From NCBI GenBank assembly GCA_001777665.1, contig MFEQ01000004.1:10-64009 (forward strand): a stretch of 64,000 nucleotides of DNA, given 5' to 3'. A program made the position numbers and the translations under genes. Below, in pieces: positions 1,387-60,383 of the stretch; position 1 is the first letter of the stretch; each line of letters opens with the position of its first letter. This stretch comes from Candidatus Doudnabacteria bacterium RIFCSPHIGHO2_02_FULL_42_25 (lineage in GTDB: Bacteria > Patescibacteriota > Doudnabacteria > UBA920 > O2-02-FULL-48-8). The notes beneath the pieces are model-generated. The model had not been told where the DNA came from and ran no database searches. It saw only the letters and a list, made by a program, of their open reading frames with translations.

Positions 1387-2478
1387 TTATTTTCCGGATT
1401 TAGTTCGATTGTCTAATTTACATAACATCTGGCAGTTTTGTGCAATTGTCTTACCACCTTCGTGCCAAGGAGTGATATGATCCGCTTCCATTTCTTCGAT
1501 ATCATAATGCTTCTTGCATTTTGGACAAATTTCATCTTGCCGCTCATAAGCCTCGCGCTTCATTTTGTCAGTAAAGGCCCGGATATTAAGATATTTTTCT
1601 TGTCTTGTAAGCACGTAGGGATATATGCCGGATTTTTTCGTCACATCTTCATCTTGCATGAGATTCTTGATTTCAACTTCTAGCTTTTTTGGATCAAGTT
1701 TCTTATCTTTGAATTCATTATACAACTCGCCCCAATTCACCACCGCCATCTCGTTTCGATAATTCGGAAACGTTTTTCGCACCCACGCAACCACGTCTTG
1801 AAAATATCCCCACAGTTCGTCAGCATTTTTATCTTTCTGATGATTCGCCATATAATCCGCGATCTCGCCGTTGTTTATCCACGAAAGTGCTGTTTCCAAA
1901 TACTCCTGTCGAATTGGCGTGCCGTTTACTAATTTTCCACCATCATTTGCCAAGCGATATGCTACGCAATTTGATTTACTAAATTTCATTTTTGCGTCGC
2001 TTAACCATGGACCAGTGTAAACAGCATTACGGATTTCCTGATCATTCACCTTCTCGCCATAAGTATTAATAATAGTGAACCAGTCTATTCGCTCCTTATC
2101 AGTCCCTTCGCAAAAATAAACCATAAGTTCGTAATCCAAAATCTCGTCCTGTTCCTCTTTGGTTAAATTATGGAAAAAACGATCGTTCAGAGAAAAATCA
2201 CCCGTAACATATTGTCCGATACTAATGGTGCGCTGTTGACCATCTAACACTTCATATCCGCCGTCGTCCCTAATCATCCAGTACATCACATTTAGCGGGA
2301 AGCCGCTTTTGATAGTTTCGATCACTGCTTTGCTTTGTTCTGGCTTGTATACAAACTCACGCTGATATTTGGGCCGAATATCCAATTTGCCACCATAAGC
2401 AACCACGCCTTCTTCAGCGCTATCTTTATAACCCTTAACTATTTCACGAATTGCAATTTTATGCGGTTCAATTTTCAT
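1387..2478 (-). CDS. DUF262 (ParB-like nuclease, DGQQR motif) fused to C-terminal HNH endonuclease; GmrSD-like
   Basis: VLDGQQRTISI near N-term; C-term CPKCKK...DHITPWHEGG...NCQMLC HNH/zinc finger. Confidence 0.6.
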   Translation of the reverse strand: MKIEPHKIAIREIVKGYKDSAEEGVVAYGGKLDIRPKYQREFVYKPEQSKAVIETIKSGFPLNVMYWMIRDDGGYEVLDGQQRTISIGQYVTGDFSLNDRFFHNLTKEEQDEILDYELMVYFCEGTDKERIDWFTIINTYGEKVNDQEIRNAVYTGPWLSDAKMKFSKSNCVAYRLANDGGKLVNGTPIRQEYLETALSWINNGEIADYMANHQKDKNADELWGYFQDVVAWVRKTFPNYRNEMAVVNWGELYNEFKDKKLDPKKLEVEIKNLMQDEDVTKKSGIYPYVLTRQEKYLNIRAFTDKMKREAYERQDEICPKCKKHYDIEEMEADHITPWHEGGKTIAQNCQMLCKLDNRTKSGK

Positions 2479-2513
2479 ACTAATTTTCTTAATATTTAAA
2501 TGTAACTATTTTT

Positions 2514-3620
2514 TCACTTCTTATTTTTTATGATGATTCTCATATAAATAAACCTGAATCGATTTCCTTCTTTAACTATAGGACTACCATTTAAATCATT
2601 AAAATTATCACCGTCTTCTTTGGTATAGATCTTTATCTTTAAATTATACGGATCATTTCTATGCGTTAATCCAATTATCTCAAACTGTTCGGGGCTATAT
2701 TTATTCAAAAAAGTGATCGGCACACCTATTGCGCCATAATAATCCGTAGGGATATCGGAAACTTTCGAAACCTCTATTGCATCGTAATTATCGTATTTTG
2801 GAAATTCTTCTGAGGTGTATTTTTTATAAAGATCAAGCTTTTCATGTCGTTTCTCCGTATCAAGGTTTGTGTACCAATTGACAGCTGGGACTTTTACATA
2901 TCCATCATTTGGATTATATCCTTTCCCTTTAACAAACTGCTTGTTGGCTTCAAGGTTGTTGTTATAAGGTGTCTTATATACCATTGACATATTAAAACCG
3001 TAACCAGACCACAATTTATTTTGTTTTATTAATCCGAAAACATCTTTATACGTAATAGCGTTCATGTTCCCTAAAATCAAAAACTTTTTATCGTGTTCAA
3101 CAAGCTGAGCTAGGTATTCACGAAAAAGAGAAAATGGTGGATTAGTGACGACGATGTCGGCTTCTTTGAGTAGTTCGATACATTCAGCGCTTCGGAAATC
3201 ACCAGAGCCTTTTAGCGGAGTGGCAACATTAGCATCGTTTTTAAGCAACCATTCTACATCAGATAAACCAACGGAACCGTCGGCGTCTGCATCTGGGACT
3301 TTATTTATTTCTATCTTTAATGGCTGTTTGCCTTTTGATCCAGCCACTTGGAGCAACGGCAACTGACCGCCAACAATTGGCGAACCGCTATAACTCGTGG
3401 TAATGAGCTTCTTGAGCTTTAATTCGTTGAATTTAGAAGCGAAATATTTAAAAAAATTGCTTTCAAATGGATCATCGCAATTACAATATACAACTTTGCC
3501 GCGAAATTGATCTTTGTAGTGCTTCAGCTCTTTTTCAATATCAACTAACTGAGTATAAAACTCATCTTTTTTGGCCTGGCTTGCCTTATGTAAATTTTTA
3601 TTTGATGATTTTTTTTCCAT
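2514..3620 (-). CDS. N6-adenine methyltransferase (gamma-class-like), probably DNA
   Basis: N-terminal DEFYTQ (FxTP-like motif X) and catalytic IVVTNPPFS (motif IV); starts 10 bp after secA stop. Confidence 0.55.
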   Translation of the reverse strand: MEKKSSNKNLHKASQAKKDEFYTQLVDIEKELKHYKDQFRGKVVYCNCDDPFESNFFKYFASKFNELKLKKLITTSYSGSPIVGGQLPLLQVAGSKGKQPLKIEINKVPDADADGSVGLSDVEWLLKNDANVATPLKGSGDFRSAECIELLKEADIVVTNPPFSLFREYLAQLVEHDKKFLILGNMNAITYKDVFGLIKQNKLWSGYGFNMSMVYKTPYNNNLEANKQFVKGKGYNPNDGYVKVPAVNWYTNLDTEKRHEKLDLYKKYTSEEFPKYDNYDAIEVSKVSDIPTDYYGAIGVPITFLNKYSPEQFEIIGLTHRNDPYNLKIKIYTKEDGDNFNDLNGSPIVKEGNRFRFIYMRIIIKNKK

Positions 3621-17911: not shown

Positions 17912-18288
17912 GCTTTCTAAGTAAGTGGGTAATCGCCCTGACGGAAACGTCCGGGAGGAAAGTCCGAACACGTGTGAATTGGATGAAGTCTCATGAGTTC
18001 ATGCAGTTCAGCAGGTAGTGGGTAATTCCCACCGGGAGTAATCCTCGAGATGCGAACAGAAACGCTTCGATCAGAAATGGGAGAAGTATCCAGTAATGGA
18101 TAATGCTCGTCGTAAGGCGAGAGTGAAACGGCTAAATTCATACTTGTCAGTGCAATACCGAATAGGTCCTTCACAGGACGGGTAGGTAGCTAGAGTTCTA
18201 CAGCAATGTAGATCCCAGAGAGATGATTGCCTCTCCCGACGTAAGTCGGGATCAGACAGAATTCGGCTTATAGCTTGCTTAGAAAGCA
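17912..18288 (+). ncRNA. rnpB: RNase P RNA (bacterial type A-like)
   Basis: GGGAGGAAAGTCCGAACAC (P4 5' strand) and ACAGAATTCGGCTTATAG (P4 3' strand); P1 pairing GCTTTCTAAGTAAG / CTTGCTTAGAAAGC; promoter immediately upstream. Confidence 0.8.
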
Positions 18289-45876: not shown

Positions 45877-47595
45877 CTAATTTATTATTTCACCGGCTGG
45901 AAAACCATCAACATCGCCTTGTGGTAAGATAGTCGGTTTCGGATACCTCGCCCGTTTGTATGACGCGGCAGTGTACATGCGCTTCAAACCATTTTCCATT
46001 TTATATATGGCGGAAGACTGATCGCCTTTGATCACTGTCCCATCGCGAGGTGGGAACAAACCTCCATTCGGAATGGCCATTAACTCCTCCGAGGAAACTG
46101 TCAACAGTGGGAAGAATCCAACCCCTCGTTGCTTCCAGACAAAAGCCGTCACTCCTCTTCGAGAATTGTCACGGAACCACCAAATCGTTGGGTCATCCGG
46201 AGTTTTCAGAGCGACCATATTAGGCGGTGTTAGAAACGGTCCAGATGCCATAGAAGACACTTCAACATCGGACAGTTTCATAATTTTCCCGAAAGAATAT
46301 TTACGAGCAACAAATACAGCACCTGATATTGGTCGTTTTAATCCGGTATCAATAATATATACCGTGGGATTCGTCTCACTCATGATCAGGGTTCCATCTG
46401 TTGGAGTTTCATAACTACCGGTCGCATATGAATCGACTTCGGCTTGGGGTAGTATCATCACGTTGCTAGCTAACAATTTTCGTTGGGCGAATACTGGGGC
46501 AGAAATGGGATGCTTTACTCCATCGCCAATTACATACGTTGTCGCATCGATATCACCTTTGAGCAAAGTGCCCTCAAGGGGAACCATTTGTTTTTCAGTT
46601 GGATATGAATCAAATTCTGTTTGGGAGACAATTATTACATTTGCAGTTTTGATGCCCCTCTGTCCCGCTACAAATGCAGAGAACGGCCGCTTCGTGCCAT
46701 TATCTATGACATACTGTTGAATGTCGCCAACACGGATAATAACTGTTCCATTCGGGTATTTAAACCAAGTGGAATAAAATTTCCAAAAATTATAATTGCC
46801 ATTGTAGACGTGAGGGGTATATCGATAAAGCGCAGCCGTCGCGTAATTGCCCAAAGTTACTGTTTGCTGTTGTTGGACTCCACTATAACCATTCAAAGTA
46901 TTATCAAGCGTAATACTATCGCCCACTCTGGCGGTTCGGACTACAGGACGGCCATAGGTCGTATTTTGGGCATCTACCATAGGTCCGCGGCCGACTCGAG
47001 CACCACCAACTTCAGCTCTAAATGAGCGCATCAAGGAAGCTGCAGCGCCTAGCCATCGATTACCTTCTCCGTCGAAAGTTCCAAATAGTTGTCGATAGAA
47101 ACCTAGGAAAATATCGCCGCAACCTTCGTAATCAGGACAGCCAAATCCTAACGAACGATCAAGCGCTCTTTGCAAACTACTGTCAGAATTAAAAGTTCCA
47201 GCAATTAAACTTTGTTCTTTTTGCAAAATTACTAAGATGACTTGAGGATTTAGCCCCCACTTCGCACCGGCATCGTAAATTAGCTCTGCGGCTGTACGCA
47301 GTCTGGTTAGGTTTGGTTGTGGATCTTCAAGCCCGACTTTCGTCAATGTATCTGCTTCTTTGAGTTTGATTAAAAATTCCGGAGTGGTATTGGCTAACAC
47401 TGAACCCTTTAATTCCAAAAAGCTCTGAATTCCCGCAGCGGAACCAAACGTTCCGACATCAGCAAATGCTTCGTCAGGAATAATCAATCCGGGATTAAAT
47501 GCAGAATCAGGCACCGCTTGAGCTAACGCTTGCAGGGGTGAAAATCCAATTTCCAGGCTCCAAAACACAATTAGCAACCATTTGATATTTTTCAT
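45877..47595 (-). CDS. Secreted protein: N-terminal putative cell-wall/glycan hydrolase-like domain + five ~55-aa repeats
   Basis: Signal peptide; repeats of form DGTLIxxxxDPTVYxIDxGxKRPIS..VF...Y.F..V..L..AEV. Confidence 0.45.
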   Translation of the reverse strand: MKNIKWLLIVFWSLEIGFSPLQALAQAVPDSAFNPGLIIPDEAFADVGTFGSAAGIQSFLELKGSVLANTTPEFLIKLKEADTLTKVGLEDPQPNLTRLRTAAELIYDAGAKWGLNPQVILVILQKEQSLIAGTFNSDSSLQRALDRSLGFGCPDYEGCGDIFLGFYRQLFGTFDGEGNRWLGAAASLMRSFRAEVGGARVGRGPMVDAQNTTYGRPVVRTARVGDSITLDNTLNGYSGVQQQQTVTLGNYATAALYRYTPHVYNGNYNFWKFYSTWFKYPNGTVIIRVGDIQQYVIDNGTKRPFSAFVAGQRGIKTANVIIVSQTEFDSYPTEKQMVPLEGTLLKGDIDATTYVIGDGVKHPISAPVFAQRKLLASNVMILPQAEVDSYATGSYETPTDGTLIMSETNPTVYIIDTGLKRPISGAVFVARKYSFGKIMKLSDVEVSSMASGPFLTPPNMVALKTPDDPTIWWFRDNSRRGVTAFVWKQRGVGFFPLLTVSSEELMAIPNGGLFPPRDGTVIKGDQSSAIYKMENGLKRMYTAASYKRARYPKPTILPQGDVDGFPAGEIIN

Positions 47596-47602
47596 TTATG
47601 AT

Positions 47603-49615
47603 CTAATTTAATATTGGCAAGCCAGGACTAACAACCTCCACTTCAGCCTGGGGTAAAGTTTTTACGCTTGAAAACAGATAGCCCCTTCCAGCAAATGCTT
47701 CAAACGACATTAATCTTTTGGTTCCATTTTCGATAACGTAAATTCCAGGATCTGTGTCGGATTTAATCAAAGTTCCATCAAGTGGTGCGAGCCAATAATT
47801 ATCTCTCGGCACAGGGATGTGGCCAAATTCATCTCGAGTAACATTCACAACATTCTTAAAAGATAAATTTCTTTGCGTAAAAACAAAATATGTTGACGGG
47901 CGCCTGACTCCCTGATCCATGACGAATACTGTCGGGTCATCTTTTATCAAAACCATAGTACCGTCTGGTGGCCAATACCATTCCCCTGTTGTAAATGCCG
48001 CAACTTCTGCTGTTGGTAAGACTTTTATGTCCGAAAATTTATAACCCCTAGAAATAAAGACGAGGTAAGTCAGAGGGCGTTTCATTTCCGAATTAATTAT
48101 ATAGACTTGCTGGTCATTCGATGATTTAATTAGCGTTCCTTCTGGTGGGGTTAAAGCCAAAACCAAAGAAAAATTGGCTAGCTCGTTTTTCGTATCGCTA
48201 ACCACAACATTCAGATCAAATCCACGTTCTACAAAAACACTCGGAATCACTAACCTCTTCGTGCCGTTAACCAAAAAATAAATATCCCCTGTCCCTAAAT
48301 CACGCATCAGAGTCCCATTTGGAATTGGCTGGGGCTTGATCGCATTCAATGCATTTATCCGACCCTTACCGAGCAACCCATTACAGCTACTACCCAAACA
48401 GGATGTTTGATTAACCCCATCTATATTATCGACCGAGCGAAGCAATAAGTTACGGATTTCCACGTTCGATAAATTTGGATTCTGCGCCTTTAACAAGGCC
48501 GCAACACCTGACACTATCGGTGTGGCCAGTGAAGTTCCTGAACCATAAATCAAAAGATTGTTTGCTGGATCAGATGGTAGATAAGTGGTTGTGATAATTT
48601 TTTTGCCCGGAGCTGCGATATCGAGACAGATCGCACCGAAGTTGGAAAAACCTGCTTTTTGATCATTGATGTCGGTTGCCGCCACCCCAATAATCATATT
48701 TTCTCCATTGTCACCACACACAGGATAAATAGGATTTTTGTCCAAACTATTTCCTACGTCAGCTGTATCGTTACCAGCAGCAGAAACTAATAGCAACCCT
48801 TTATTATAAGCGTACGAAATTGCATTACTCAAAGTCATATCGTTGCCAAAACCCGGGCCTCCCATGCTTAAATTGATAATGTTTGCGCCATTATCAGCAG
48901 CCCAGACAATTCCTGCTGCCACGTCTGAGGTGTCCCCTGTGCCATCTGCGGCCAAGGTTTTAACCGGCATTAATCTAACATTCCAATTAACTCCAGCAAT
49001 TCCTTTTTGATTATTCGGAATGGCGCCGACGACTCCAGCTACTGCGGTCCCATGTCCATTGTCATCTGAATTGCCACCTGATGGAATAATTTCTTTTTTA
49101 AATACATCATAGCCAGGTCCCACTCTGCCGTCATTTAATTCGATATGGCTAGCATGAATGCCAGTATCTATAATGGCCACTGTCACCGCTGTCGAACCCT
49201 TGGTATATTCCCAAGCATCGGGAATCTGGGTTTTCGGCAAATACCACTGCCTATCTTCTTTCGTCGCATCCAAAGTAAAAAACGGATCATTGGCAGTGAC
49301 CAGTTGAGTAACAGAAATCTCGGCAGCAGTCATTTTACTATCCCGCTGAACATAATTAATTCTCGGATCCGAACTCATCAAATCAAAAGTTCTCGTAGAA
49401 ATTTCTGTTTTATAAATATTTTGAAATAAATATGAAGCGTCCAAAGAATAATCTGAAAATACTGCCTGATTATATTCAGGGCTTTTTATTTGAAACGTAA
49501 CCTCTACCAATTCTTGATCAGTAATTGCTTGCGGTATGGCCGTAAATAAAAAAATTGGCACCAAGATGCTGCCTAGAGTTTGTAATTTGAAATTTGTAAT
49601 TTGTAATTTACTCAT
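47603..49615 (-). CDS. Secreted subtilisin-like serine protease (S8) with four C-terminal ~55-aa repeats
   Basis: Catalytic D (AIIDTGI), H (HGTAVAG), S (GTSLATP); repeat family shared with upstream neighbour. Confidence 0.8.
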   Translation of the reverse strand: MSKLQITNFKLQTLGSILVPIFLFTAIPQAITDQELVEVTFQIKSPEYNQAVFSDYSLDASYLFQNIYKTEISTRTFDLMSSDPRINYVQRDSKMTAAEISVTQLVTANDPFFTLDATKEDRQWYLPKTQIPDAWEYTKGSTAVTVAIIDTGIHASHIELNDGRVGPGYDVFKKEIIPSGGNSDDNGHGTAVAGVVGAIPNNQKGIAGVNWNVRLMPVKTLAADGTGDTSDVAAGIVWAADNGANIINLSMGGPGFGNDMTLSNAISYAYNKGLLLVSAAGNDTADVGNSLDKNPIYPVCGDNGENMIIGVAATDINDQKAGFSNFGAICLDIAAPGKKIITTTYLPSDPANNLLIYGSGTSLATPIVSGVAALLKAQNPNLSNVEIRNLLLRSVDNIDGVNQTSCLGSSCNGLLGKGRINALNAIKPQPIPNGTLMRDLGTGDIYFLVNGTKRLVIPSVFVERGFDLNVVVSDTKNELANFSLVLALTPPEGTLIKSSNDQQVYIINSEMKRPLTYLVFISRGYKFSDIKVLPTAEVAAFTTGEWYWPPDGTMVLIKDDPTVFVMDQGVRRPSTYFVFTQRNLSFKNVVNVTRDEFGHIPVPRDNYWLAPLDGTLIKSDTDPGIYVIENGTKRLMSFEAFAGRGYLFSSVKTLPQAEVEVVSPGLPILN

Positions 49616-50354
49616 TTGATGAGTATTTACCAGTTAATGCTTTCCATTTAATAATAAACAGGTCGCGAAGCGATTGTAAGTATGCTTTTAGGGGCACATG
49701 CGAACCTCCATGTTCTTCCCAGGACACTGGCACTTCCTTAATTCTATAGCTTAATTTCAGAGCAATAGCAAGTAATTCCATGTCGAAAGCCCAACCAAAA
49801 ATGGTCAGGTGCTTGAAAATTTTTGTTGCCGCTGATGTTTTAAATGCTTTGAAGCCACATTGCGTGTCCTTGATATGTGGTATTAATACTATTTGGATGA
49901 GCATATTACTCATCCTGGACAAAAGAATTTTATAAAATGGTTGTTTGATTTTTACTGTAGTCTGATCTTGGTATCGGGAGCCAATGACAACTTCTATTCC
50001 GGATTCTAAATACTGCCAAAATTTTTCAATCTCCGAGATAGGTGTTGCGTTATCCGCGTCCATAAACACAGCAAATTCGCCTCTCGCTTCAGCGATTCCT
50101 AGTTGTACTGCCGCACCTTTCCCCCTCACCCATTGTTTAATTGCTCGGGCATTTTGGACTGTTGTCGTCTCTAATTTTCGAACAACTTCAAAAGTTTTGT
50201 CCTTACTATTATTATCGATAACAATAATCTCATACCCAAAATTTTGTTTCTCTAAGTAACTATCAACAGCGCGCAGAGTTTTTTCGATACGCTTTTCTTC
50301 GTTATATGCAGGGATAATGACTGATAATTTGATCATATTTTGAGGGCAAATCAA
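49608..50354 (-). CDS. Glycosyltransferase family 2 (dolichyl/polyprenyl-phosphate glycosyltransferase-like)
   Basis: LSVIIPAYNEEKRI, VIDNNSKD, FMDADNAT (DxD). Confidence 0.75.
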   Translation of the reverse strand: MICPQNMIKLSVIIPAYNEEKRIEKTLRAVDSYLEKQNFGYEIIVIDNNSKDKTFEVVRKLETTTVQNARAIKQWVRGKGAAVQLGIAEARGEFAVFMDADNATPISEIEKFWQYLESGIEVVIGSRYQDQTTVKIKQPFYKILLSRMSNMLIQIVLIPHIKDTQCGFKAFKTSAATKIFKHLTIFGWAFDMELLAIALKLSYRIKEVPVSWEEHGGSHVPLKAYLQSLRDLFIIKWKALTGKYSSNE

Positions 50355-50388
50355 AAGTAATTATACCAAAAATTGCTTTGATTGTAAA

Positions 50389-51402
50389 TTATTTTGTTTC
50401 GAATTCGCGTTGTTTTTCCACCAATAACTTCTGATGCCAGGCCCAGGCAGTTTTTATGATTGTTTCGACATCAGAATAGATAGGGTTAAATCCCAATTCA
50501 GTTTGGATTTTGGTGGGATCTGCGACTAAAACTGCTGGATCCCCTGGCCGTCTGGGTGAATACTCAATCGGGATCATTCGCTTTGTCACCTCAACACAGG
50601 TGTTCACGATTTCATTTACTGATCGGCCCTTACCAGTACCGACATTGTAAGCAAATACGCCTTGGTCAGAATCTAATTTATGCAAAGCGAGATTATGTGC
50701 TGTCGCTAAATCTTCCACATGAATATAATCTCTGACGCATGTTCCATCAAAAGTGGGATAGTCGTTGCCAAAAATCTTTAAGACTTCTTGCTGCTTGGCT
50801 GCAACCTGTAAAATTTTCGGGATCAAATGTGATTCGACTGGATGACTCTCGCCGATTCTTGCATCCGTGCTGCCACCGCAGGCATTAAAATATCGGAGGC
50901 TGATCGAGGACAGCCCAAACGCTTCGTGGTACCACTTCAATATTTTTTCAAACACCAGTTTCGTTTCACCATATGGGTTGACGGGTTTTTTGGGATGCTC
51001 TTCGTCAATCGGAACATAATGTGGCTCACCGTAAATGGCTGCACTGGATGAGTAAACCAATTTCGTGACTTTGTGGCTGACCATGGCATCGAGTAAATTT
51101 CGGCCGTTATTGACGTTGTTATCAAAATATCGATTCGGGAACAAAACTGATTCTTCAACTATGATTGAGTTGGCAAAATGGATTACAGAATCGATTTCAT
51201 GATCATCAAAAATTTTATCAAGGAGTTTTTTATCAGATAAATCCCCGACTATCAACTGACAATTAATTGCGTTGGAATGCCCGGCCGAGAGATTATCAAG
51301 GACGATAACCTCTTTCCCGATGGATTGCAATAATTTCACGGTGTGGGAACCGATGTAGCCCGCACCACCAGTAACTAAAATTTTCTGCTTTGGGGAATCC
51401 AT
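50389..51402 (-). CDS. galE: UDP-glucose 4-epimerase / NAD-dependent epimerase
   Basis: VTGGAGYIGSH Rossmann, YxxxK active-site region; 337 aa. Confidence 0.75.
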   Translation of the reverse strand: MDSPKQKILVTGGAGYIGSHTVKLLQSIGKEVIVLDNLSAGHSNAINCQLIVGDLSDKKLLDKIFDDHEIDSVIHFANSIIVEESVLFPNRYFDNNVNNGRNLLDAMVSHKVTKLVYSSSAAIYGEPHYVPIDEEHPKKPVNPYGETKLVFEKILKWYHEAFGLSSISLRYFNACGGSTDARIGESHPVESHLIPKILQVAAKQQEVLKIFGNDYPTFDGTCVRDYIHVEDLATAHNLALHKLDSDQGVFAYNVGTGKGRSVNEIVNTCVEVTKRMIPIEYSPRRPGDPAVLVADPTKIQTELGFNPIYSDVETIIKTAWAWHQKLLVEKQREFETK

Positions 51403-51557: not shown

Positions 51558-51600
51558 CAAAAAAAAGTGCCGCAAGATCTGCGGCACTTTAGTTTTTTTG
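51558..51600. terminator. Perfect hairpin AGTGCCGCA-AGATC-TGCGGCACT flanked by A-run and T-run (bidirectional terminator)
   Basis: Seen directly downstream of the 51602..52195 gene. Confidence 0.7.
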
Positions 51601-51601
51601 A

Positions 51602-52195
51602 TTAATTACCGGAAGTTATCCCCACTAACCGTCTCCGGAATATAAATCCGGCAGTCAATAATGCGGCCAGGAGCACTGGAACAAATTCAGAGGCACCTGA
51701 TGTTGGTGCAATGTAGTTTGAAGCAACTTGCTGCATGGCAGAACCCCCAGAAACTACTGCTGTTGGTCGAATCTCTACAGCTAGTTCGTTATTGAAGCTG
51801 ATTCTCATCGTGGTCGATGTACTACCAGAAGGCAGCGAGTTAACTTTGACCGAGAAAGTTTGGGAGATGGATTCGTGTGGTGGAATATCGCGAGGTGTCC
51901 AGACGAGTGAATTCGTCGCAGAATTATAGGAAGCACCTGAAGCTTCAACTAGTGAAGCTTGATTGGTAACATCAGAGATGTTTGCTTCCATAACATAACC
52001 CGAGATAGTCTCATCATTTGGATTTTCAGCATTGAGAGTAAACACAACACTGTCCCCTGGTACAGCAGTCGTGGTAGAAGCCGAGACCGAGAGTACTGGA
52101 GTTGCTTTTTCTTTCTCGTCCCAATTAACGAACCAGACAATTGCCCCAATGATGAGGATTAGCGCCACAAGGCCAATAATTGTTCTTTTGTCCAT
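51602..52195 (-). CDS. Small surface protein (DUF11-like domain) with C-terminal IAPTSG sorting-signal-like motif
   Basis: N-terminal signal/TM; C-term YIAPTSG + hydrophobic stretch + RRR. Confidence 0.5.
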   Translation of the reverse strand: MDKRTIIGLVALILIIGAIVWFVNWDEKEKATPVLSVSASTTTAVPGDSVVFTLNAENPNDETISGYVMEANISDVTNQASLVEASGASYNSATNSLVWTPRDIPPHESISQTFSVKVNSLPSGSTSTTMRISFNNELAVEIRPTAVVSGGSAMQQVASNYIAPTSGASEFVPVLLAALLTAGFIFRRRLVGITSGN

Positions 52196-55134
52196 AGTTT
52201 TCCCTTTCTAATACCTACGTATGCTAGCACAGCCAGTGCGGCTAATGCTAGTGCGATAATGGTTGAAGTAGGCCCTGTCTTTGGTGCGATGTATGTAACC
52301 CCAGCAACAATTGGAGCAGCAACACGAACATTGAGTGTATTGCCAAAGATGTTGGTCATGGTCAAATCAGAACCAGTTGGGAAACTGCCATTAACTTTCA
52401 CACTGAAAGTTTTTTCTACTGTTCCGTTTGCTGGAATGGTGGTTGCCGGCCAGCTCAAACTTAGATTGCCAATATTAAACGCAGCATCACCGAAAGTTTG
52501 CAACATGGATAACTGCAAAACATCAGAGATGCCATCCTGGAAGACATAGTTAGTTGCAGCCACACTTCCGCTGTTACGTACGCTCAAAGTGTAGATAATA
52601 ATGTCACCGGGTCGTGCAATGCTAGACACAGCATCAATATTTTGAGTTTGATTGAAAGCTCTTTTGCTCAAAATAAGATTGATGCTACCCCCGCCTGATA
52701 CAGATCGATTGACCACCACAGTGGCAGAATCTGATACTGAACTTGCATTACTAGAAGTAACTGTAACATTGTTGACCCAGTTCGAAATTCCGGTCGGGAA
52801 ATTTCCTTCTGAAGCAGCTTGTACTGTAATGAACACAGTTTGAGTGTTCCCAGCATTCATGCTGCCAAAATTCGTAACTGTAGAACCTGAGACCAAACTA
52901 AAGTTATTCGGGAAGGTGTCAGTGACTACAACATTATTGGCTGTCGCATTGCTGACTGAAACTTGAATCTGATATTGAACTTGATCACCTGGGTTGGCAT
53001 TTACTGTTTTACTAAACCCTGTTCCTTGGGTGACATTTTTTACTAATTTAGTTACCAAAATAACTGGAGTTGGTGAACCACCGCCACCACAAGATTTGCT
53101 GACAGTGATAGCTGCGGTATCAGAAGCTGAACCAGCGTTGGTTGAAGTTGCAGATGCAGTGTTGGTGTGATTAGTAGAACCACAAGCAACATCTGGGACT
53201 ACAGAAGACAGAGTAAAGGTATGAGAAGTTCCTGCGTTTAGATTGCCTATATTGTTCGCAGAGTTTGAGCCAGTCACAAAGCTCCAGCCTGATGGCAGAG
53301 TGTCTGTAATAATTACATTTTGGGCATGAGTATTACCAGTAGCACTTACTTTGATTTGGAACTGAACGATATCACCAGGAGCGGCATTGGTAGAATTGCT
53401 GAAACCACTATCATTTTTGGTGATATTTTTTACTTGTTTATCTAGACTCAAACTCACATTCGTAGAAGGTGGGTTTATAGTCACAACGACGTTCGCTGAA
53501 GCGCTTGCGCTATTGGAACTAGAAGTAACTGTTACATTGTTAGTCAGAGTAGATGTTCCGACACTAAAGCTTCCTGAGCCACTAACTGTAGCGCGAATAA
53601 TAATTTTTCTGTCACTGCCAGCAACTTCAGAACCGAGTCCGATTTGATTGATTGGGTCGGAGCTAGGAACGCCGTCCACAGTCAAAGAGTTTGCCACATA
53701 ATTCAGTCTGTTTGGCAAAACATCATTGATAACAACACCAGTGACTAGTCCAGCATTTACTTTCAAATTGATTTGAAATTCCACTTGGTCACCAGGATTG
53801 GCAGCAGTAGAAGACGTAAAAGCGCTTTGTCCTTGGGTTACGTTACGAACAGTTTTAGTTATGGTCACGGTCCCAGGGGTAGGTGTTGGTGTAGGAGTCG
53901 GAGTTGGTGTCGGAGTAACAACTATAACAACAGGTTTGTATCCGAAGTTATGGACGAAATCCGGACAAACAGTAAAAGCTATACTGTCATCAGTAGTTCG
54001 AGTATATCCAGTTGGTACAGTGTGTTTAACGCGGTAAGTTCCGGCAGTTAAGTTATTGAAGGAATAGAAACCCTGGCTGTCTGTTCTAGTAGTTGAGATC
54101 ACTTGAGTATCAGCGGAATTAGTCAAAGATACTAGTTCGTTACTTTGAGCTTGATCATTGCCATCAAATATTCCGTTACCGTTGTGATCTATGAATACGC
54201 GGCCAGTAGCTTTGGCTATACATTGGCTAACTTTAAAATCATATGTGACTAAATGCAAATATTCATAGCATCCACGCATATCACCTATTGAAGCCCCGGT
54301 TGTGACTACGGAATCCGATAATACGCGAACATTTGTCATGTTGCGATCGTATAACTTAGCAGAACCAGCAACGTAATTCAGAGAAGAACCATTTGGCATA
54401 CCAATTGTGACATCACCACCTTTTTGAGCAGAATTGATTCGATCAGCATTGTTGGCCCAAGCTTCGGCAGTGATGGTTGATCCTGAAATCGCTGATTTCA
54501 CTATGACATTATTAGCCACGTTCACATCGTAATCTAGAGTCCCGTTATGAACATAAAGTTCTGCTCGAAGAGTATCACCAGGATTGGCGTTTACAGTGCT
54601 ACCATTAACCCAGTTACCACCTTGAGTAACATTCTTTACAGAAAGCAGAGGGTAGTCTGTACAATCCGCACCGGTCGTGGCAATAGGGAAAATGTTGAGC
54701 ATTGGTTGGCCCATTGGAGGTGTTGGCGTACAACCATCTGGGCTTGTGTTTCCGCCCGTGCCGCCGCCGCCAGTTATATCCATACGAATCATCGATGCTA
54801 TCCATTCAGTATCCATATCAGCGAGGATATTGGTATAGGTTCGAGAATAGAACCCGGTTGCAGTTAATTCAATATCAACGTATCCAGGAGTTATACCCTG
54901 AAAAGTATATGCACCTGAACCATCCGTAACACCTTGTAACCCACTATTGAGTTTGACATTTACTCCTGAAACTAGAGTGTTGTTCGCTGGGTCGCCTTCA
55001 TAAACTCGAACAGTCAAGTTGACTGGGTCCGCAGCGAAAGAAGTGGCAACAGCAGAAACTGTACCAGCCAATACTAATGCCATCGCAATTGTTTTTATGA
55101 CTTTTGTTTTTTGAAGACCTTTGATGAATTGCAT
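52159..55134 (-). CDS. Large surface adhesin/pilin-like protein (Cna-B-like and multiple DUF11 repeats, TP-linker) with IAPKTG sorting signal
   Basis: Start at MQFIKGLQKT (SD AGGAA); GTYRVKHTVPTGYT Cna-B motif; (TP)6 linker; C-term YIAPKTGP + hydrophobic + RKGK. Confidence 0.6.
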   Translation of the reverse strand: MQFIKGLQKTKVIKTIAMALVLAGTVSAVATSFAADPVNLTVRVYEGDPANNTLVSGVNVKLNSGLQGVTDGSGAYTFQGITPGYVDIELTATGFYSRTYTNILADMDTEWIASMIRMDITGGGGTGGNTSPDGCTPTPPMGQPMLNIFPIATTGADCTDYPLLSVKNVTQGGNWVNGSTVNANPGDTLRAELYVHNGTLDYDVNVANNVIVKSAISGSTITAEAWANNADRINSAQKGGDVTIGMPNGSSLNYVAGSAKLYDRNMTNVRVLSDSVVTTGASIGDMRGCYEYLHLVTYDFKVSQCIAKATGRVFIDHNGNGIFDGNDQAQSNELVSLTNSADTQVISTTRTDSQGFYSFNNLTAGTYRVKHTVPTGYTRTTDDSIAFTVCPDFVHNFGYKPVVIVVTPTPTPTPTPTPTPGTVTITKTVRNVTQGQSAFTSSTAANPGDQVEFQINLKVNAGLVTGVVINDVLPNRLNYVANSLTVDGVPSSDPINQIGLGSEVAGSDRKIIIRATVSGSGSFSVGTSTLTNNVTVTSSSNSASASANVVVTINPPSTNVSLSLDKQVKNITKNDSGFSNSTNAAPGDIVQFQIKVSATGNTHAQNVIITDTLPSGWSFVTGSNSANNIGNLNAGTSHTFTLSSVVPDVACGSTNHTNTASATSTNAGSASDTAAITVSKSCGGGGSPTPVILVTKLVKNVTQGTGFSKTVNANPGDQVQYQIQVSVSNATANNVVVTDTFPNNFSLVSGSTVTNFGSMNAGNTQTVFITVQAASEGNFPTGISNWVNNVTVTSSNASSVSDSATVVVNRSVSGGGSINLILSKRAFNQTQNIDAVSSIARPGDIIIYTLSVRNSGSVAATNYVFQDGISDVLQLSMLQTFGDAAFNIGNLSLSWPATTIPANGTVEKTFSVKVNGSFPTGSDLTMTNIFGNTLNVRVAAPIVAGVTYIAPKTGPTSTIIALALAALAVLAYVGIRKGKLWTKEQLLALWR

Positions 55135-55249
55135 ATAGATTCCTTTCTTAAAATAATAAATAAATAAATTTTTTATTTGTTTATCACTTGAAAAAAGAGA
55201 GTGAGCAGGGTGGTGATTTTCATCAACCACCCGCTCGGGAAACGCGTAC

Positions 55250-56236
55250 TTACCGACTACCCGGACTACCTGTCTTGCTGGGTGTGTTGTTGCCGTCAGG
55301 ACCAGCACGTCCTCGAATGACGGGCAGGATCGCTGCAGCAGCACATGCAGCCCAAGTGTAGCTGGACACGCATGGAATCCACACCTTACCCCGCTTCTTC
55401 TCGACAACCGGGACTGGTGCTGGCTCTGGGGTGGGTCTCGAGACCAGGAGCGGCGGCAGATCCTTCGGCAGGAGCGGCTGATACGTGACGATGTCAGGCT
55501 CAGGTTGCAACGGCTTCTCAGGCCTAACCTCGCTCGTCTGTGTCAGTCCCTCCCGAAGCATGTCCAACGAAAAGTCGAGGTTACCGCAGATTAGGTAGAA
55601 CCAGCCTGTCTGCCTCTGACCCATCTGATGTCCTTCTGTGATTTCGAGTTCTGAAGTCGCGATCACTCGGACACCACACTCGCCTGCTTCGGTCTTCACT
55701 CCGACTTCGCAGAAGCCGAGAACGACCGCCTCGTTACTCCACATGCGGGCCCACGGAATCCGAGATCCGTCAGGCATCACCCGATCGGGAGCCGCCTCTG
55801 ACGGGAACCAAACAGTGGTCTTACCGCAAGGGACGATCTTCTCGACGAGCTTGACCGAGCGTAACGCCGGAAGAAACGAAGCCGGCGGTTCCACTGCGAC
55901 CTTGTCCATCATCGTACCAGGCGGTGTAAACGCCTGCTGGACGAAGAGCGCATTTATCCTGACACGAGCCCTAATCAAATCAGGTTCTGTAGTCGGATCG
56001 AGCACGGGATCCGCCAGTACGCGACGGATGTACGAAATTGCCTCCGCCGTCTGCATCCTGCGCAGTTCTGGAATCACGGGATTGGTACCCGCATGATCCT
56101 TGGTCCAGCGCGGCATGGTTTCGAACCCAGGCCGGTACTGTGTCACAGGACAGTCCTGGAGCTCGCCGACCTGTGCTTCCGCGGTGGAAGCCAAACACAC
56201 ACAGAGCGCGATCAGCATGGGGAGTATGCGTCGCAT
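55250..56236 (-). CDS. Secreted hypothetical protein (GC-rich island)
   Basis: Signal peptide MRRILPMLIALCVCLASTAEA; AGGAGG SD; GC far above neighbours. Confidence 0.45.
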   Translation of the reverse strand: MRRILPMLIALCVCLASTAEAQVGELQDCPVTQYRPGFETMPRWTKDHAGTNPVIPELRRMQTAEAISYIRRVLADPVLDPTTEPDLIRARVRINALFVQQAFTPPGTMMDKVAVEPPASFLPALRSVKLVEKIVPCGKTTVWFPSEAAPDRVMPDGSRIPWARMWSNEAVVLGFCEVGVKTEAGECGVRVIATSELEITEGHQMGQRQTGWFYLICGNLDFSLDMLREGLTQTSEVRPEKPLQPEPDIVTYQPLLPKDLPPLLVSRPTPEPAPVPVVEKKRGKVWIPCVSSYTWAACAAAAILPVIRGRAGPDGNNTPSKTGSPGSR

Positions 56237-56419
56237 CTTGCCTCCTTATTGGCATTGCGCTTCCTTGGGTAAGAAGCGACTCCCAAGCCCTCTTTTCTTG
56301 GGACTCACTTCTTCATAAACGCAACTTAGAACTTTACCACAAAACCCTAGCAAAGTCAATGTGATTTTCTGTTTGGAGAGGAGACGGGGAACCCATAGTG
56401 GGCTCCCCTTTGTACTTGC

Positions 56420-56971
56420 CTATAAGGCACCCCTGATGTACGTGTAGTAGCGGTCCACCAAGCCGCTGTCGTCGTACGTTTCGCGGACCAATTCCAGCGA
56501 AACCGGATCGCGCCGCACGTGTTCAGCAAACGGGAACCGCAGCTCCTTGATGCCGCTGCCGTCAGCCGCTTCGACACGAATACGGATCCGCAGGATGTTG
56601 CCGGGACAAAGAGCAACGCTCGGAAACAATACCGTGCGCTTTTTCGTCACTGGGTCGACCGAGTTGCTATACTCGGTCCCGACCTGGGTCGCCTTCGTTT
56701 CATCGTCGCACTTTCGTACGACGTAGATCTTGGCGCCATTCCAGTCGGATAACCCGCCGTCGTCTCCGAAGGCCCAGTTGAAGTTCTCGCCCAGTATGAG
56801 CGAAGCCTTGCCTTCTGCGATCTTCTTCGCCGTGATGGTGATCACGTCGACCTCAGCGCTCGGTGTCACCGCACGCTGTTCCGGCGTCATCTCAGGCGCC
56901 AGAGGTGACTTCTTGTCGCAACCCAAGGTCGCGACGACGAACAAAACTATACCTACGATCCGCATGTCCAT
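56420..56971 (-). CDS. Putative lipoprotein (GC-rich island)
   Basis: Start MDMRIVGIVLFVVATLGC (lipobox LGC) after GGAGGA SD; GC-rich. Confidence 0.45.
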   Translation of the reverse strand: MDMRIVGIVLFVVATLGCDKKSPLAPEMTPEQRAVTPSAEVDVITITAKKIAEGKASLILGENFNWAFGDDGGLSDWNGAKIYVVRKCDDETKATQVGTEYSNSVDPVTKKRTVLFPSVALCPGNILRIRIRVEAADGSGIKELRFPFAEHVRRDPVSLELVRETYDDSGLVDRYYTYIRGAL

Positions 56972-57009
56972 TCCTCCGTTTGGAGGGCTCTGGGGGGAGC
57001 CCATGACCG

Positions 57010-58119
57010 TTACAATGCTACCGGAACTGCTGATACAACAAGCCTGTCTTTCGTGGTTCCTATCGGCCAGCAGGTTGAAAGATTCAACTTGCTACCCGAT
57101 CCATCCGTAAATTGAGATTGGTCATCTGGTCTGTATGTCTTGCTGCCTGTAACCTGATATCGAAAATTGTAAGTCTTGCCGTCGTTACCATAAACTTCAA
57201 CAAAAATGTCATCACCTGGGGCAAGGTTATTTAGTCTAGAAAAAACGTTCTGCATTGGGTTACGTTTCCAGAGGTAATCTGAAGAGTGTCCAGAAACATA
57301 AATGATTCCATTCTCTCCTGGTAAAGCTGTTCCAGGGTAATGGATTATACCTTTGGTTAAATCAGCATCGAATTGAGAAACATCTTTGGACCAAATCAAA
57401 GGCACCTGCAAATTTAATTTGGGAATCGAAATTCTACCAGGTAAATCAAGATTGTAAGCGATCATACTACCTCCGCTGACAACTCCTTCTGGAATTTGGG
57501 AAGTACTAAACGAAATTCGGTTGTTGATTAAATTCAAATCAATACTTTCAGATAATTTTTTCTGATTAGCAGTCATCTGTCCTCGACCCCATGGGTTATA
57601 ACCATTGAGGAGTTCTACCCCATCAGTAAAATTGTCAGAATCCGAGTCAGCAATAATAGGATTGGTCCGCATCACGAATTCATCATGATTAGAAAGCCCG
57701 TCTTTATCGATATCATTGGTTGGCTCTAAAAACTTATCATCGCCTACGGCATAGAAATAATTACCAATCCATTTGTAATATTCCTGAAGATCTTCACCCA
57801 AAATTTGTTCATCCTGAGGTTTAGAAAACCAGCCCTGGATTTGGCTCCAAAATGCACCAAAATTTATAACACTATAAAAGAATACAAAAGCGGCTAGGAA
57901 AAGCATAACATAGCCAACTAACATCTTTAACGCTTTGCCCAGTTTGGAACCAACCTGAACAGAAACTTCTTCTATCGCAGCGGTGCTATCTGAAGCCATG
58001 CTCAATTCTTCTACAGCCTCATGCGGTGTCATGTGTTCTTGGCCAGAACCAAGATGATGGACCTCCTCTGCAGGAGCCCCTATTTTCAAAAGTTTATGAA
58101 TTTCTGATTCGTATTCCAT
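57010..58119 (-). CDS. Sortase-family transpeptidase with N-terminal TM and Ca-binding-like Asp-rich insert
   Basis: His (YVSGHSS), Cys (KLNLSTCWP, TLxTC-like), Arg (KDRLVVSA) in sortase order; one TM helix. Confidence 0.55.
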   Translation of the reverse strand: MEYESEIHKLLKIGAPAEEVHHLGSGQEHMTPHEAVEELSMASDSTAAIEEVSVQVGSKLGKALKMLVGYVMLFLAAFVFFYSVINFGAFWSQIQGWFSKPQDEQILGEDLQEYYKWIGNYFYAVGDDKFLEPTNDIDKDGLSNHDEFVMRTNPIIADSDSDNFTDGVELLNGYNPWGRGQMTANQKKLSESIDLNLINNRISFSTSQIPEGVVSGGSMIAYNLDLPGRISIPKLNLQVPLIWSKDVSQFDADLTKGIIHYPGTALPGENGIIYVSGHSSDYLWKRNPMQNVFSRLNNLAPGDDIFVEVYGNDGKTYNFRYQVTGSKTYRPDDQSQFTDGSGSKLNLSTCWPIGTTKDRLVVSAVPVAL

Positions 58120-58188
58120 ATATTTAACTTGAAGTGAGGATTAAAAAAATTCAATCCGAACGGTAAATATTAGCATAAATCAGTCCAC

Positions 58189-58218
58189 TTGTCAAGAGCA
58201 ATAGGCAGTTTGTATAAT
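58189..58218 (+). promoter_or_regulatory. Sigma-70-like promoter (TTGTCA-18-TATAAT) for CAP-domain gene
   Basis: TTGTCA 58189-58194, TATAAT 58213-58218, ATG at 58242. Confidence 0.5.
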
Positions 58219-58241: not shown

Positions 58242-59420
58242 ATGAAACTAAAACATTACCTAATAGCTTCCGAACAAAACGACTATAAACCCTGGATTAT
58301 CAAACCGAGCGCACTTGGGCTTTTTTGTCTCGTTATCTGGAGTTTACGGATCCTAGTCCCAGCAACTGTCACTTTGGCTGCCAATTCTATCGATCCCACT
58401 GATCTGATGGCGAAAGTCAACGCTGAACGCAGCCAGCGTTTCCTTTCCACACTAAAGACAGATTCCAGACTCTCTACCGCTGCCAATGACAAAGCCAATG
58501 ACATGATTACACGAAGCTATTTTGCGCACGTTGATCCAGATGGTAAATACGTCTGGCCCAGAATCGAAGCCGCTGGGTATAAGCCTTATGTCACGTTAGG
58601 AGAAAATCTGGCCATGGATTTTGATTCAGCGAACAAAGTTGTAGAGGCTTGGATGAACAGCCCGACTCATCGAGCAAATATTGTAAACACAAAGTTTGAA
58701 GATCAAGGACTGGCTGCCGTCGATGGACTTTATGAACCAGGGCATAACACGATTATGATTGTTAGTTTGTTCGGGACTCTGGTTAAAACTCAAACGAATC
58801 CTCCAGCGCCCGCCCCTAGCCCCACTCCAACCACGACTCCGCCGCCCGCCCCAACTCCGACACCTACATCACCAACTCCTACACCCACCCCTCCTCCTGT
58901 TACTGCTGTCATTCCAGTAGAAATTTCAAAAGATATAAAAATAATTAGCACGTCACTTTCAGGTCATACCATGGTCGACATCACTGTACCCATTTCAGGA
59001 AATCCGACTTTAGTCACAGCGCAACTCAATACCCAATCCATTTCGTTAATCCAAAGTCAAACAGCTGGAGAATTTTTGGGCACATTTACTTTTAACCAAT
59101 CTGAAGATCTGACCCAGTCCAAACTTTCGATTGAGGCCAGAGATAGTTCAGGAATTAAAACCAATCAAGAATTCCCAGTGAACATCGAATCACATGTAAC
59201 AGGCTCAGCCCAATCAGAGACTGTCCCAGTTTCAAACGAAGCAGGAGTGATTAAAATATTAAGAATTATATTCGGAATATTTGCTGTTATATACCTGGGT
59301 TTTTTGATTCTAGACGCAGTAATTTTACATCGGGATAAAATAAAAAGAGACGGGATTCGACCGAATGCCCATCTCTTAATCTTTGTTATTCTAGTAGGCG
59401 TAACGTTATTTACGCTATAA
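58242..59420 (+). CDS. Secreted CAP/SCP (YkwD-like) domain protein with Pro/Thr-rich linker and C-terminal membrane anchor
   Basis: YFAHVDPDGKY...GENLA...AWMNSPTHRANIV CAP motifs; P/T linker; C-terminal TM helices. Confidence 0.65.
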   Translation: MKLKHYLIASEQNDYKPWIIKPSALGLFCLVIWSLRILVPATVTLAANSIDPTDLMAKVNAERSQRFLSTLKTDSRLSTAANDKANDMITRSYFAHVDPDGKYVWPRIEAAGYKPYVTLGENLAMDFDSANKVVEAWMNSPTHRANIVNTKFEDQGLAAVDGLYEPGHNTIMIVSLFGTLVKTQTNPPAPAPSPTPTTTPPPAPTPTPTSPTPTPTPPPVTAVIPVEISKDIKIISTSLSGHTMVDITVPISGNPTLVTAQLNTQSISLIQSQTAGEFLGTFTFNQSEDLTQSKLSIEARDSSGIKTNQEFPVNIESHVTGSAQSETVPVSNEAGVIKILRIIFGIFAVIYLGFLILDAVILHRDKIKRDGIRPNAHLLIFVILVGVTLFTL

Positions 59421-60383
59421 AATTCGTTGGTTGAAATTGTGTCCAGCAAACACTAACGTAACTATAAATACCATCATCGCCAAATACTCAAAGGCGACTT
59501 TTTTAGTTAAAGTGTTATCCAAACGATGATGCAAAATGCCCCAGGCGGCGTTGTACACAGCCAACATCACTAGTCCGGCAGTGAGGTACTCACTATTCCA
59601 ATTGCTATAAACCCAAAATGAAACCAAGGCCATCATCACAGCGATGAGTAATATCCAGAAAAAAATCGTAAAGTTCAGTAAACGGTGCTGGAATAGAGCT
59701 TGATATACCAAAAAAAATGTCAAAGTTAAAACACTAAGCGATAAAAAGAAGGCATTGAAACCGAAATAAAAAGTTACACCAACGGTTGAAGCAAAAATAA
59801 TATATGCTCCATAAAGCTTGACCAAAGATAAAACTAAAATCCAATGGTCTTGGTGCTCTAATTTTCGGCTGACGTGTTCTTTCATATACCAGTAAGCAAC
59901 AGCCATAGCGATTGTTGATGAAAAAACTAAAATCTGTTTGAGTCCAATGTTAAATGGATTCAATAAAAGCAGGGTTACAGTACCCCAATAAATTATTCCC
60001 GGTAAGACCAAATAGTTCTGATAATGACGAAAATAATGCCAGTTCCGTAAATGTTCAAACCTTTCTAATAAAGCCATCCAGAGCATTCTTACACCAGTAT
60101 GATTAAGTTTCGCGTTGGCTAACACTCCACGCTTTTTTAAGTGTAAATCGAACATGAAAGTCAACCAGATCAAATGGAAGGCGTAAATATAAAGCGATAA
60201 GTAAAGTCCAGAGTTTAGTTGGTAAAGCGAAAGTGTGGTGCTGATCGCTTGAAATCCAAAAAATGCACCAAGCGTAACGATCAAAACCGATAAAATTTTA
60301 TTTTTGGTTTCGTTAAGTAATGGTTGCATTCTTTTTGCGAGCAAGTTCCCCTGCCTTAAATAAAGATTCGAACGTCCCAGCAT
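59415..60383 (-). CDS. Polytopic membrane protein, unknown function
   Basis: ~9 TM helices; likely true start at the internal Met (60329) to avoid overlap with rfbA. Confidence 0.4.
   Translation of the reverse strand: MLGRSNLYLRQGNLLAKRMQPLLNETKNKILSVLIVTLGAFFGFQAISTTLSLYQLNSGLYLSLYIYAFHLIWLTFMFDLHLKKRGVLANAKLNHTGVRMLWMALLERFEHLRNWHYFRHYQNYLVLPGIIYWGTVTLLLLNPFNIGLKQILVFSSTIAMAVAYWYMKEHVSRKLEHQDHWILVLSLVKLYGAYIIFASTVGVTFYFGFNAFFLSLSVLTLTFFLVYQALFQHRLLNFTIFFWILLIAVMMALVSFWVYSNWNSEYLTAGLVMLAVYNAAWGILHHRLDNTLTKKVAFEYLAMMVFIVTLVFAGHNFNQRIL

Follow-up and report, generated by a model that had tools for sequence, protein, structure and literature searches.

Background

Sortases have been reported from more than half of the genomes of the candidate phyla radiation (CPR) (PMC6744442), and several papers on these bacteria note that the enzymes are common without describing their sorting signals or substrates (PMC6744442, PMC4736985, PMC6851277). 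In this study we analysed a stretch of 64,000 nt, called the window throughout, from Candidatus Doudnabacteria bacterium RIFCSPHIGHO2_02_FULL_42_25 (contig MFEQ01000004.1 of assembly GCA_001777665.1), a member of the CPR/Patescibacteria. It holds a sortase gene together with genes for two surface proteins, which probably form a dedicated pair of enzyme and substrates with a private sorting signal of the type [F/Y]-x-[A/S]-P-x-[T/S]-G.

The closest described relatives of this enzyme are the class C sortases, such as SrtC1 of Streptococcus agalactiae and SrtC1 and SrtC2 of Actinomyces oris. These give the best matches in structure and profile comparisons, and share with it an eight-stranded barrel, a His-Cys-Arg triad, the spacing TC-x-P-x-G-x4-R and a gene that is clustered with those of its substrates. 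The sortases of classes D and E, with their LPNTA and LAxTG signals, have in common with it an N-terminal membrane anchor, a small dedicated set of substrates and a non-canonical signal. In the proteobacterial class GN or 'marine sortase' (TIGR03784), too, the enzyme is accompanied by a handful of adjacent substrates which carry a private variant of the signal. A preference for APxTG itself is a property of engineered variants of Staphylococcus aureus SrtA, namely F40, F1-21/A1-22 and cW11, with APKTG used in combination with F40 (PMC9126251, PMC8248031). For these variants the loop between strands beta6 and beta7 was randomised and reduced activity was reported; they served in the traceless semisynthesis of histone H3 (PMC9126251, PMC8248031). 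The Pam pili of CPR bacteria were also considered and set aside, as they are a different system which is assembled by donor-strand exchange and without a sortase (bioRxiv 10.64898/2026.03.03.709456).

A search of open-access full texts for APKTG or APXTG found sortase papers only on the engineered SrtA variants. Thus a natural [FY]xAPxTG signal and the sortase clade belonging to it appear to be undescribed in this literature, and, within the open-access literature searched, the pairing reported here is the first defined between a sortase and its substrates in CPR bacteria.

A sortase outside the curated classes

An initial annotation of the window had pointed out a sortase-like enzyme by its order of His, Cys and Arg residues. 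This assignment is firmly borne out. The protein matches Pfam PF04203 with an E-value of 2.6e-20 (72.9 bits, cut-off 26.6) and the generic NCBIfam sortase model TIGR01076 with 47.1 bits (cut-off 39.35). Altogether 252 homologues were found, whose named sources are mostly Candidatus Doudnabacteria, and in an alignment of 30 homologues with 48–66% identity His278, Cys350 and Arg359 are all invariant. The loss of one of these catalytic residues, which the annotation had named as evidence against its proposal, is therefore not seen. The AlphaFold (AF2) model has a mean predicted local distance difference test score (pLDDT) of 70, with most of the catalytic domain between 80 and 97, and adopts a sortase fold: Foldseek matched it to about 100 solved sortase chains at E <= 0.001, the best at 7e-12. 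Class C chains rank first (E ~1e-11), and those of classes A, E and F follow closely. A sequence-profile search against the PDB likewise gave class C as the best match (E 5e-9).

The scores of the NCBIfam class models stand in here for a phylogeny of classes A–F. The sortase fails the class C model NF033745 (46.2 bits, cut-off 160), both class D models (NF033746, 56.7 against 165; NF058671, 58.5 against 140), the class E model NF033747 (41.3 against 160), the class F model NF033748 (24.5 against 166) and the class GN model TIGR03784 (19 against 158). A class A model is absent among its NCBIfam hits, and the adjacent substrates carry APxTG, not LPXTG. Furthermore, the protein ends 10 residues past Arg359, just after the last strand, with no C-terminal membrane anchor, and no DP[FWY] lid motif is seen ahead of strand 1, judging by the sequence only; the region 207–218 is disordered in the model. 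It thus lacks two hallmarks of class C. We conclude that the gene at 57010–58119 codes for a genuine sortase which belongs to none of the curated classes.

Several features characterise this family. The cytoplasmic N-terminus carries a conserved motif YxSEIHRLLKLG (residues 1–10 correspond to positions 58090–58119), and, since lysines precede the transmembrane helix, the catalytic domain would face outward. The segment that links the membrane helix to the catalytic domain contains two repeats similar to thrombospondin type 3 (TSP3) repeats, DxDxDGLxNxDE and DSDxDGxxDG, which are conserved in the 30 homologues; PF18884 is among the precomputed annotations of many sortase homologues, and NCBIfam models of thrombospondin-repeat proteins match weakly. 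We know of no described sortase class with TSP3-like repeats or with the YxSEIHRLLKLG motif. The loop between strands 6 and 7 (residues 331–337) reads PDDQxQF in all 30 homologues, and it is probably in this family-specific loop that the specificity of the enzyme lies.

A probable sorting signal shared by two types of candidate substrate

Both neighbouring proteins end as the initial annotation had described, in YIAPKTG or YIAPTSG followed by a hydrophobic stretch and a basic tail. The large protein has the signal peptide MQFIKGLQKTKVIKTIAMALVLAGTVSAVATSFA, with cleavage before AD, as read from the sequence. Its predicted Cna-B module, (TP)n linker and repeated DUF11 modules were all recovered: SdrD_B matches with 64.5 bits (E 1.3e-17), DUF11 with 76.8 bits (E 2.1e-21) and TIGR01451 with 104.6 bits in four stretches, and a (TP)7 linker begins at residue 407. 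The small protein matches DUF11 only weakly (24.0 bits, just below the Pfam cut-off of 24.6), but its domain aligns at 36% identity (E 4e-15) with the final domain of the large protein and the signal behind it. The small protein begins with a long hydrophobic segment without an obvious signal-peptidase site. The NCBIfam LPXTG-anchor model matches neither substrate at E <= 0.1.

With the sortase as the only bait, 49 related loci were collected, 20 from species-representative genomes and 29 from metagenomes. Their neighbourhoods reach up to ~21 kb around the sortase gene and were analysed together with the one 64-kb window. Wherever enough downstream sequence is available, the sortase gene is followed by genes for one to three large proteins and for one protein of ~200 amino acids with the same ending. 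The signal varies among the loci (FIAPKTG, FVAPKTG, FVSPKTG, FVAPRTG, FVAPPTG, YYPPKTG, YKAPKTG, YTAPTTG, YKAPVTG, YVSPNSG) and is retained at a sortase identity of 40% (locus L049). The large proteins mostly end in F[VI]APKTG and the small ones mostly in YKAP[KTV][TS]G. An alignment of 39 members of the small-protein family has 12 invariant columns, two of which are Pro164 and Gly167 of the motif, while Ala163 is conserved in at least 90% of the sequences.

The composition of the signal was derived from 65 non-identical tails taken from the window, the related loci and 29 homologues of the small protein. We number its positions as P1 for the Thr or Ser, P3 for the Pro, P4 for the residue before it and P6 for the aromatic one. 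P1 is Thr in 48 tails and Ser in 16; P4 is Ala in 57 and Ser in five, but Leu in none; P6 is aromatic in 55 of the 65 (Tyr 36, Phe 19). Motif, hydrophobic stretch and basic tail follow each other in both window proteins and throughout the 65 tails, which agrees with the earlier view of a sorting-signal layout without the LPXTG sequence. The signal has the Pro, Thr and Gly positions in common with LPXTG but Ala in place of Leu at P4; a further conserved position, the aromatic P6, lies two residues ahead of this Ala. Unlike signals of the LPxTA type, those of the tail set end in TG or SG. The conserved aromatic at P6 suggests that recognition extends beyond the pentapeptide, a matter of current interest in sortase engineering.

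The position of the motif was compared with that of the canonical one in 553 open reading frames (ORFs; 130,681 amino acids) from the window and the first 20 loci. The pattern [FY].[AS]P.[TS]G lies within the last 45 residues in 27 of its 28 occurrences, so that the C-terminal enrichment on which the initial annotation had made its proposal depend is clearly present; for LPxTG-like strings only two out of 21 are C-terminal. Because the motif is concentrated at C-termini and the pairing of sortase and signal recurs in the related loci, a chance origin of the signal is unlikely. A sortase with altered APxTG specificity, as first proposed, is supported in that the enzyme and the signal occur together in dozens of independent Doudnabacteria loci. 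Three features had been overlooked: the aromatic residue at P6, the TSP3-like repeat region of the sortase and the GC-rich genes at 55250–56236 and 56420–57004.

Organisation of the locus and proposed mechanism

The features of the locus are compiled in Table 1. All genes of interest are on the minus strand of the window, which has a guanine plus cytosine (GC) content of ~41%, in the order sortase, lipoprotein-like ORF, 328-aa secreted protein, 991-aa protein and 197-aa protein, with the last gene overlapping the end of the one before by 37 nt. A sigma-70-like promoter at 58195–58167 and a strong hairpin terminator at 51590–51564 appear to delimit the transcription unit. A single unit is consistent with the promoter before the sortase gene, the terminator after the gene of the small protein and the overlap of the two substrate genes. 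We found this sortase in 24 contigs; the locus was identical in all six that were inspected, which come from different samples and assemblers of the Rifle aquifer datasets (including GCA_001780055.1 and GCA_001777545.1).

Table 1. Features of the sortase locus, with positions in the window unless a related locus is named.
Feature	Position	Strand	Remarks
Sigma-70-like promoter, 5' of sortase gene	58167..58195	-	TTGACA, 17 nt, TAATAT, TG extension; 10/12 consensus matches; pattern match only
Sortase, 369 aa	57010..58119	-	conserved cytoplasmic N-terminus, one transmembrane helix, TSP3-like repeats, C-terminal catalytic domain (~residues 228-367)
Transmembrane anchor of sortase, residues 67-90	57850..57921	-	LVGYVMLFLAAFVFFYSVINFGAF; from sequence; AF2 helix 59-85, pLDDT 84-93
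TSP3-like, putatively calcium-binding repeats, residues 133-177	57589..57723	-	NDIDKDGLSNHDEF and ADSDSDNFTDGVEL; Asp/Gly/Asn/Glu positions invariant in the 30-homologue alignment
Catalytic His278 (SGH278SSDY)	57286..57288	-	invariant in 30 homologues; coordinate verified
Catalytic Cys350 (LNLSTC350WPIGT)	57070..57072	-	invariant in 30 homologues; aligns with the class C TLxTC cysteine; coordinate verified
Catalytic Arg359 (DR359LVV)	57043..57045	-	invariant in 30 homologues; coordinate verified
Lipoprotein-like ORF, GC-rich (59%)	56420..57004	-	likely start MRIVGIVLFVVATLGC at 56965, lipobox-like TLGC; GGAGG upstream of start
Internal sigma-70-like promoter, 5' of 328-aa gene	56331..56359	-	TTGACT, 17 nt, TAAAGT; consensus scan; pattern match only
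Secreted orphan, 328 aa, GC-rich (59%)	55250..56236	-	signal peptide, ~240-aa Cys-containing domain, Pro-rich linker, short hydrophobic segment, tail ...TPSKTGSPGSR; AAGGAGG before ATG
Large surface protein, 991 aa	52159..55134	-	Sec signal peptide, CarboxypepD_reg, SdrD_B/Cna-B-type, (TP)7 linker, four DUF11 stretches, sorting signal
Sorting motif YIAPKTG, large protein	52273..52293	-	then hydrophobic stretch PTSTIIALALAALAVLAYVGI, then RKGK
Small protein, 197 aa	51602..52195	-	N-terminal hydrophobic anchor, one DUF11-like domain, sorting signal
Sorting motif YIAPTSG, small protein	51695..51715	-	then hydrophobic stretch ASEFVPVLLAALLTAGFIF, then RRR
Intrinsic-terminator-like hairpin, 3' end of operon	51564..51590	-	12-bp stem and T run; consensus scan
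Candidate substrate peptides			GVTYIAPKTGPTS and SNYIAPTSGAS
Orphan family in loci L007-L026, examples	L010 13724-15013	-
	L013 2216-4117	+
	L015 6107-7483	+

We take the locus to be a dedicated sortase-substrate operon with the private signal [F/Y]-x-[A/S]-P-x-[T/S]-G in Doudnabacteria and give this reading a probability of roughly 0.8. Both DUF11-domain proteins would be exported by Sec and held in the membrane by the C-terminal hydrophobic segment and the basic tail. The outward catalytic domain of the membrane-anchored sortase would then recognise the signal, and Cys350, aided by His278 and Arg359, would cut the bond between Thr or Ser and Gly. An amine would resolve the acyl-enzyme, most likely that of the peptidoglycan precursor lipid II, so that the proteins would be displayed on the cell wall through a covalent bond. 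Further off in the window are genes for a Mur ligase and MurG, so the organism should make lipid II. Nearby are other genes of the cell envelope (dTDP-rhamnose synthesis, glycosyltransferases, a flippase-type polysaccharide export protein and an ABC-2 exporter) as well as an S8 subtilase and a CAP/YkwD protein.

GC-rich genes between sortase and substrates

The 1.75 kb between the genes of the sortase and the large protein have a GC content of 58–60%. At third codon positions (GC3) it amounts to 0.74 in the lipoprotein-like ORF and 0.64 in the 328-aa gene, compared with 0.35 in the sortase gene and 0.33–0.39 in the flanking genes. The lipoprotein-like ORF has no match in Pfam, NCBIfam or PHROGs; a GC-rich lipoprotein-like ORF stands at the same position in locus L013, without BLAST similarity to that of the window. 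In one Rifle sample (locus L006, 11644–11729, against ~56477–56486 in the window) the gene carries an insertion of ~90 nt, with a product of 242 amino acids against 181–194 elsewhere, while the sortase is identical.

Neither the sequence nor the predicted fold of the 328-aa protein revealed a relative in Pfam, NCBIfam, PHROGs or the PDB. Its homologues number four in a collection of 5.8 billion protein clusters, and a search of 1.84 billion cluster representatives gave 25 matches, about 18 of them true members. No homologue was traced outside sortase loci. A gene of 57–64% GC adjoins the sortase in nearly every related locus, where the locus-wide GC content is 0.41–0.58; in some species it is on the same strand as the sortase gene and in others on the opposite one. 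Out of 34 GC-rich ORFs, 30, with the window's 328-aa gene among them, fall into one BLAST cluster, and the GC3 of this family is 0.63–0.82, against ~0.35 in the window's neighbouring genes. The ~240-aa domain has the conserved cysteine motifs WxKDHAG, FCEVG, GEC and CGNLDF. The C-terminus comes in two forms, either a short hydrophobic segment with a tail such as PSKTGSPGSR or a beta-strand-like ending (GFSF or IRF, for example).

An assembly chimera was rejected as the cause of this GC island, since the six contigs inspected all contain it with identical sequence, although samples and assemblers differ, and an equivalent gene exists in other species. A recent transfer from a sequenced donor of high GC content is not supported by the few homologues in both cluster collections. 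A mobile element or phage was also dismissed as the source, as neither flanking direct or inverted repeats nor a PHROGs match were found. The orphan may be a fast-evolving cassette for host interaction which is exchanged among Doudnabacteria, its composition may be the result of GC-biased gene conversion at a recombination hotspot, or it may be a functional partner of the sortase. A syntenic orphan of ~60% GC within genomes of 41–50% GC is a compositional puzzle with a bearing on the evolution of CPR surface loci.

Short contigs with a cassette of the Doudnabacteria type (L015, L016 and L017; also L009, L021, L024 and L026) have been binned as Acidobacteriaceae, Candidatus Binatia, Verrucomicrobiia or Saccharibacteria. 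These assignments are probably errors of binning or naming, to which the GC-rich gene possibly contributed.

Alternative explanations

Several points weigh against the dedicated operon with wall anchoring as we propose it. Export, membrane retention and attack by Cys350 we infer from family membership and signal architecture; the site of cleavage is likewise a predicted one, and the acceptor is a guess. The N-terminal anchor of the small protein seems to stay uncleaved, which is unusual for a wall-anchored protein. As the comparison covers neighbourhoods of ~20 kb and one 64-kb window, a second sortase or LPXTG proteins may be encoded elsewhere in the genome. The conserved GC-rich gene of the cassette fits nowhere in so simple a model. 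Finally, the modelled sortase fold appears closest to the pilus-specific class C, whose members polymerise proteins rather than attach them to the wall. The enzyme might accordingly act in the manner of class C and couple the large protein, which would be a tip adhesin, to a lysine in the small one, the base or stalk subunit, or build a short covalent fibre, with the base alone attached to the wall. Class C enzymes are indeed the closest solved structures, the sortase gene is clustered with its own substrates, and the signals differ systematically between the large proteins (F[VI]APKTG) and the small ones (YKAP[KTV][TS]G). In many loci the large and small genes overlap by 4–37 nt, which suggests coupled expression, and a Pro-rich stalk precedes the motif of some small proteins, as in the basal pilins FctB and SpaB. 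However, no lysine is invariant among the 39 aligned small proteins, a YPK pilin motif was not found in the large protein, neither the lid motif nor a C-terminal membrane anchor is visible in the enzyme, and its class C score stays at 46 bits against a cut-off of 160. We therefore regard such an assembly as somewhat unlikely.

The C-terminal segments could also be plain membrane anchors which are never cleaved, with the APxTG stretch as a structural or stalk element and the sortase acting on other proteins. Processing of the C-termini is, after all, a prediction, and the LPXTG-anchor model misses both proteins; but an anchor of this kind hardly accounts for an invariant Pro and Gly and a near-invariant Thr or Ser at a fixed distance before the hydrophobic segment and basic tail, nor for a motif tied to this sortase clade across 49 loci whose neighbourhoods, as far as examined, hold no other candidates for a sortase signal. 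This makes it highly improbable. Another question is whether the GC-rich orphan is a working part and not a passenger, for instance by way of the conserved lysine of its C-terminal tail (P-x-K-[TS]-G-[GS]-P-G), which might serve as acceptor or help the protein to dock to the sortase. It adjoins the sortase in nearly every locus examined, its members form one homologous and rare family, and nearly all members with a tail have a Lys followed by a Gly/Pro-rich stretch. On the other hand, its orientation relative to the sortase varies, some members end in the beta-strand-like ...GFSF or ...IRF without a tail, the substrates of locus L022 are intact although no GC-rich gene is seen there, and the tail would be cytoplasmic, beyond the reach of the sortase, if the hydrophobic segment spans the membrane. 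A working role of this kind we hold to be quite improbable. The most far-reaching possibility combines these elements into an undescribed display machine of four parts: a calcium-repeat sortase of a new class which reads [F/Y]xAPxTG, two types of substrate with different sub-variants of the signal, and the lineage-restricted secreted partner of ~60% GC, which would either take part in the reaction, for instance as acceptor through its tail lysine, or serve in host interaction as a module that is exchanged rapidly and owes its lasting high GC content to recombination. As a whole this is speculative and, in our view, improbable.

Surroundings of the cassette

Conservation extends to the flanks of the cassette (47603–51402 and 58242–60383), which are syntenic in those related loci that have enough flanking sequence. 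Upstream are genes for a CAP/YkwD-domain protein, which has a linker rich in Pro and Thr and a membrane segment at its C-terminus, and for a DUF5656 membrane protein; downstream follow an epimerase, a GT2 glycosyltransferase and the S8 subtilase, which has a long C-terminal extension. Directly downstream of the subtilase, a 572-aa ORF (45877–47595, minus strand) has no Pfam match and a weak one to phrog_9616 of unknown function (E 2e-5). In several assemblies the sequence breaks off at 55069–55570, close to the 5' end of the large adhesin gene, which points to variation between strains here. Elsewhere in the window, an EcoRI-type adenine methyltransferase (E 6e-138) adjoins a GmrSD-N/HNH endonuclease (1387–3620), likely a restriction-modification or modification-dependent restriction pair. 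The sole Rfam match in the window is a bacterial class A RNase P RNA at 17917–18286 on the plus strand (127.5 bits, E 1e-38).

Comparison with known systems

The locus provides a conserved enzyme-signal pair for one CPR lineage and names the adhesins which are likely displayed covalently by an organism whose presumed way of life is attachment to other cells. From the class C systems it differs by the missing lid motif and C-terminal anchor, the low model score, substrates without a pilin motif, Ala at the position of Leu together with the upstream aromatic residue, the TSP3-like repeats and the CPR host. Class D gave the best class-specific NCBIfam scores (57–58 bits), yet these are far under the cut-offs of 140–165. 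The LAxTG signal of class E might look similar at first sight, but there Ala replaces Pro at P3, whereas in the Doudnabacteria signal Pro is invariant and Ala replaces Leu at P4. Class GN is more remote, as it scores only 19 bits against a cut-off of 158 and differs in both substrates and lineage. The class B sortase SrtB of Clostridioides difficile, a natural Firmicute enzyme, reportedly uses [SP]PxTG signals, which resemble those of Doudnabacteria in the small residue at P4, but with Ser or Pro instead of Ala; a conserved aromatic at P6 has, to our knowledge, not been described for it.

Closest in terms of the signal are the engineered variants of S. aureus SrtA. These are products of the laboratory, whereas the Doudnabacteria enzyme is a natural one with only a distant relationship to SrtA, and the signal that it reads is apparently longer. 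A natural APxTG-using family, if real, would be an obvious candidate for a tool orthogonal to the LPXTG sortases.

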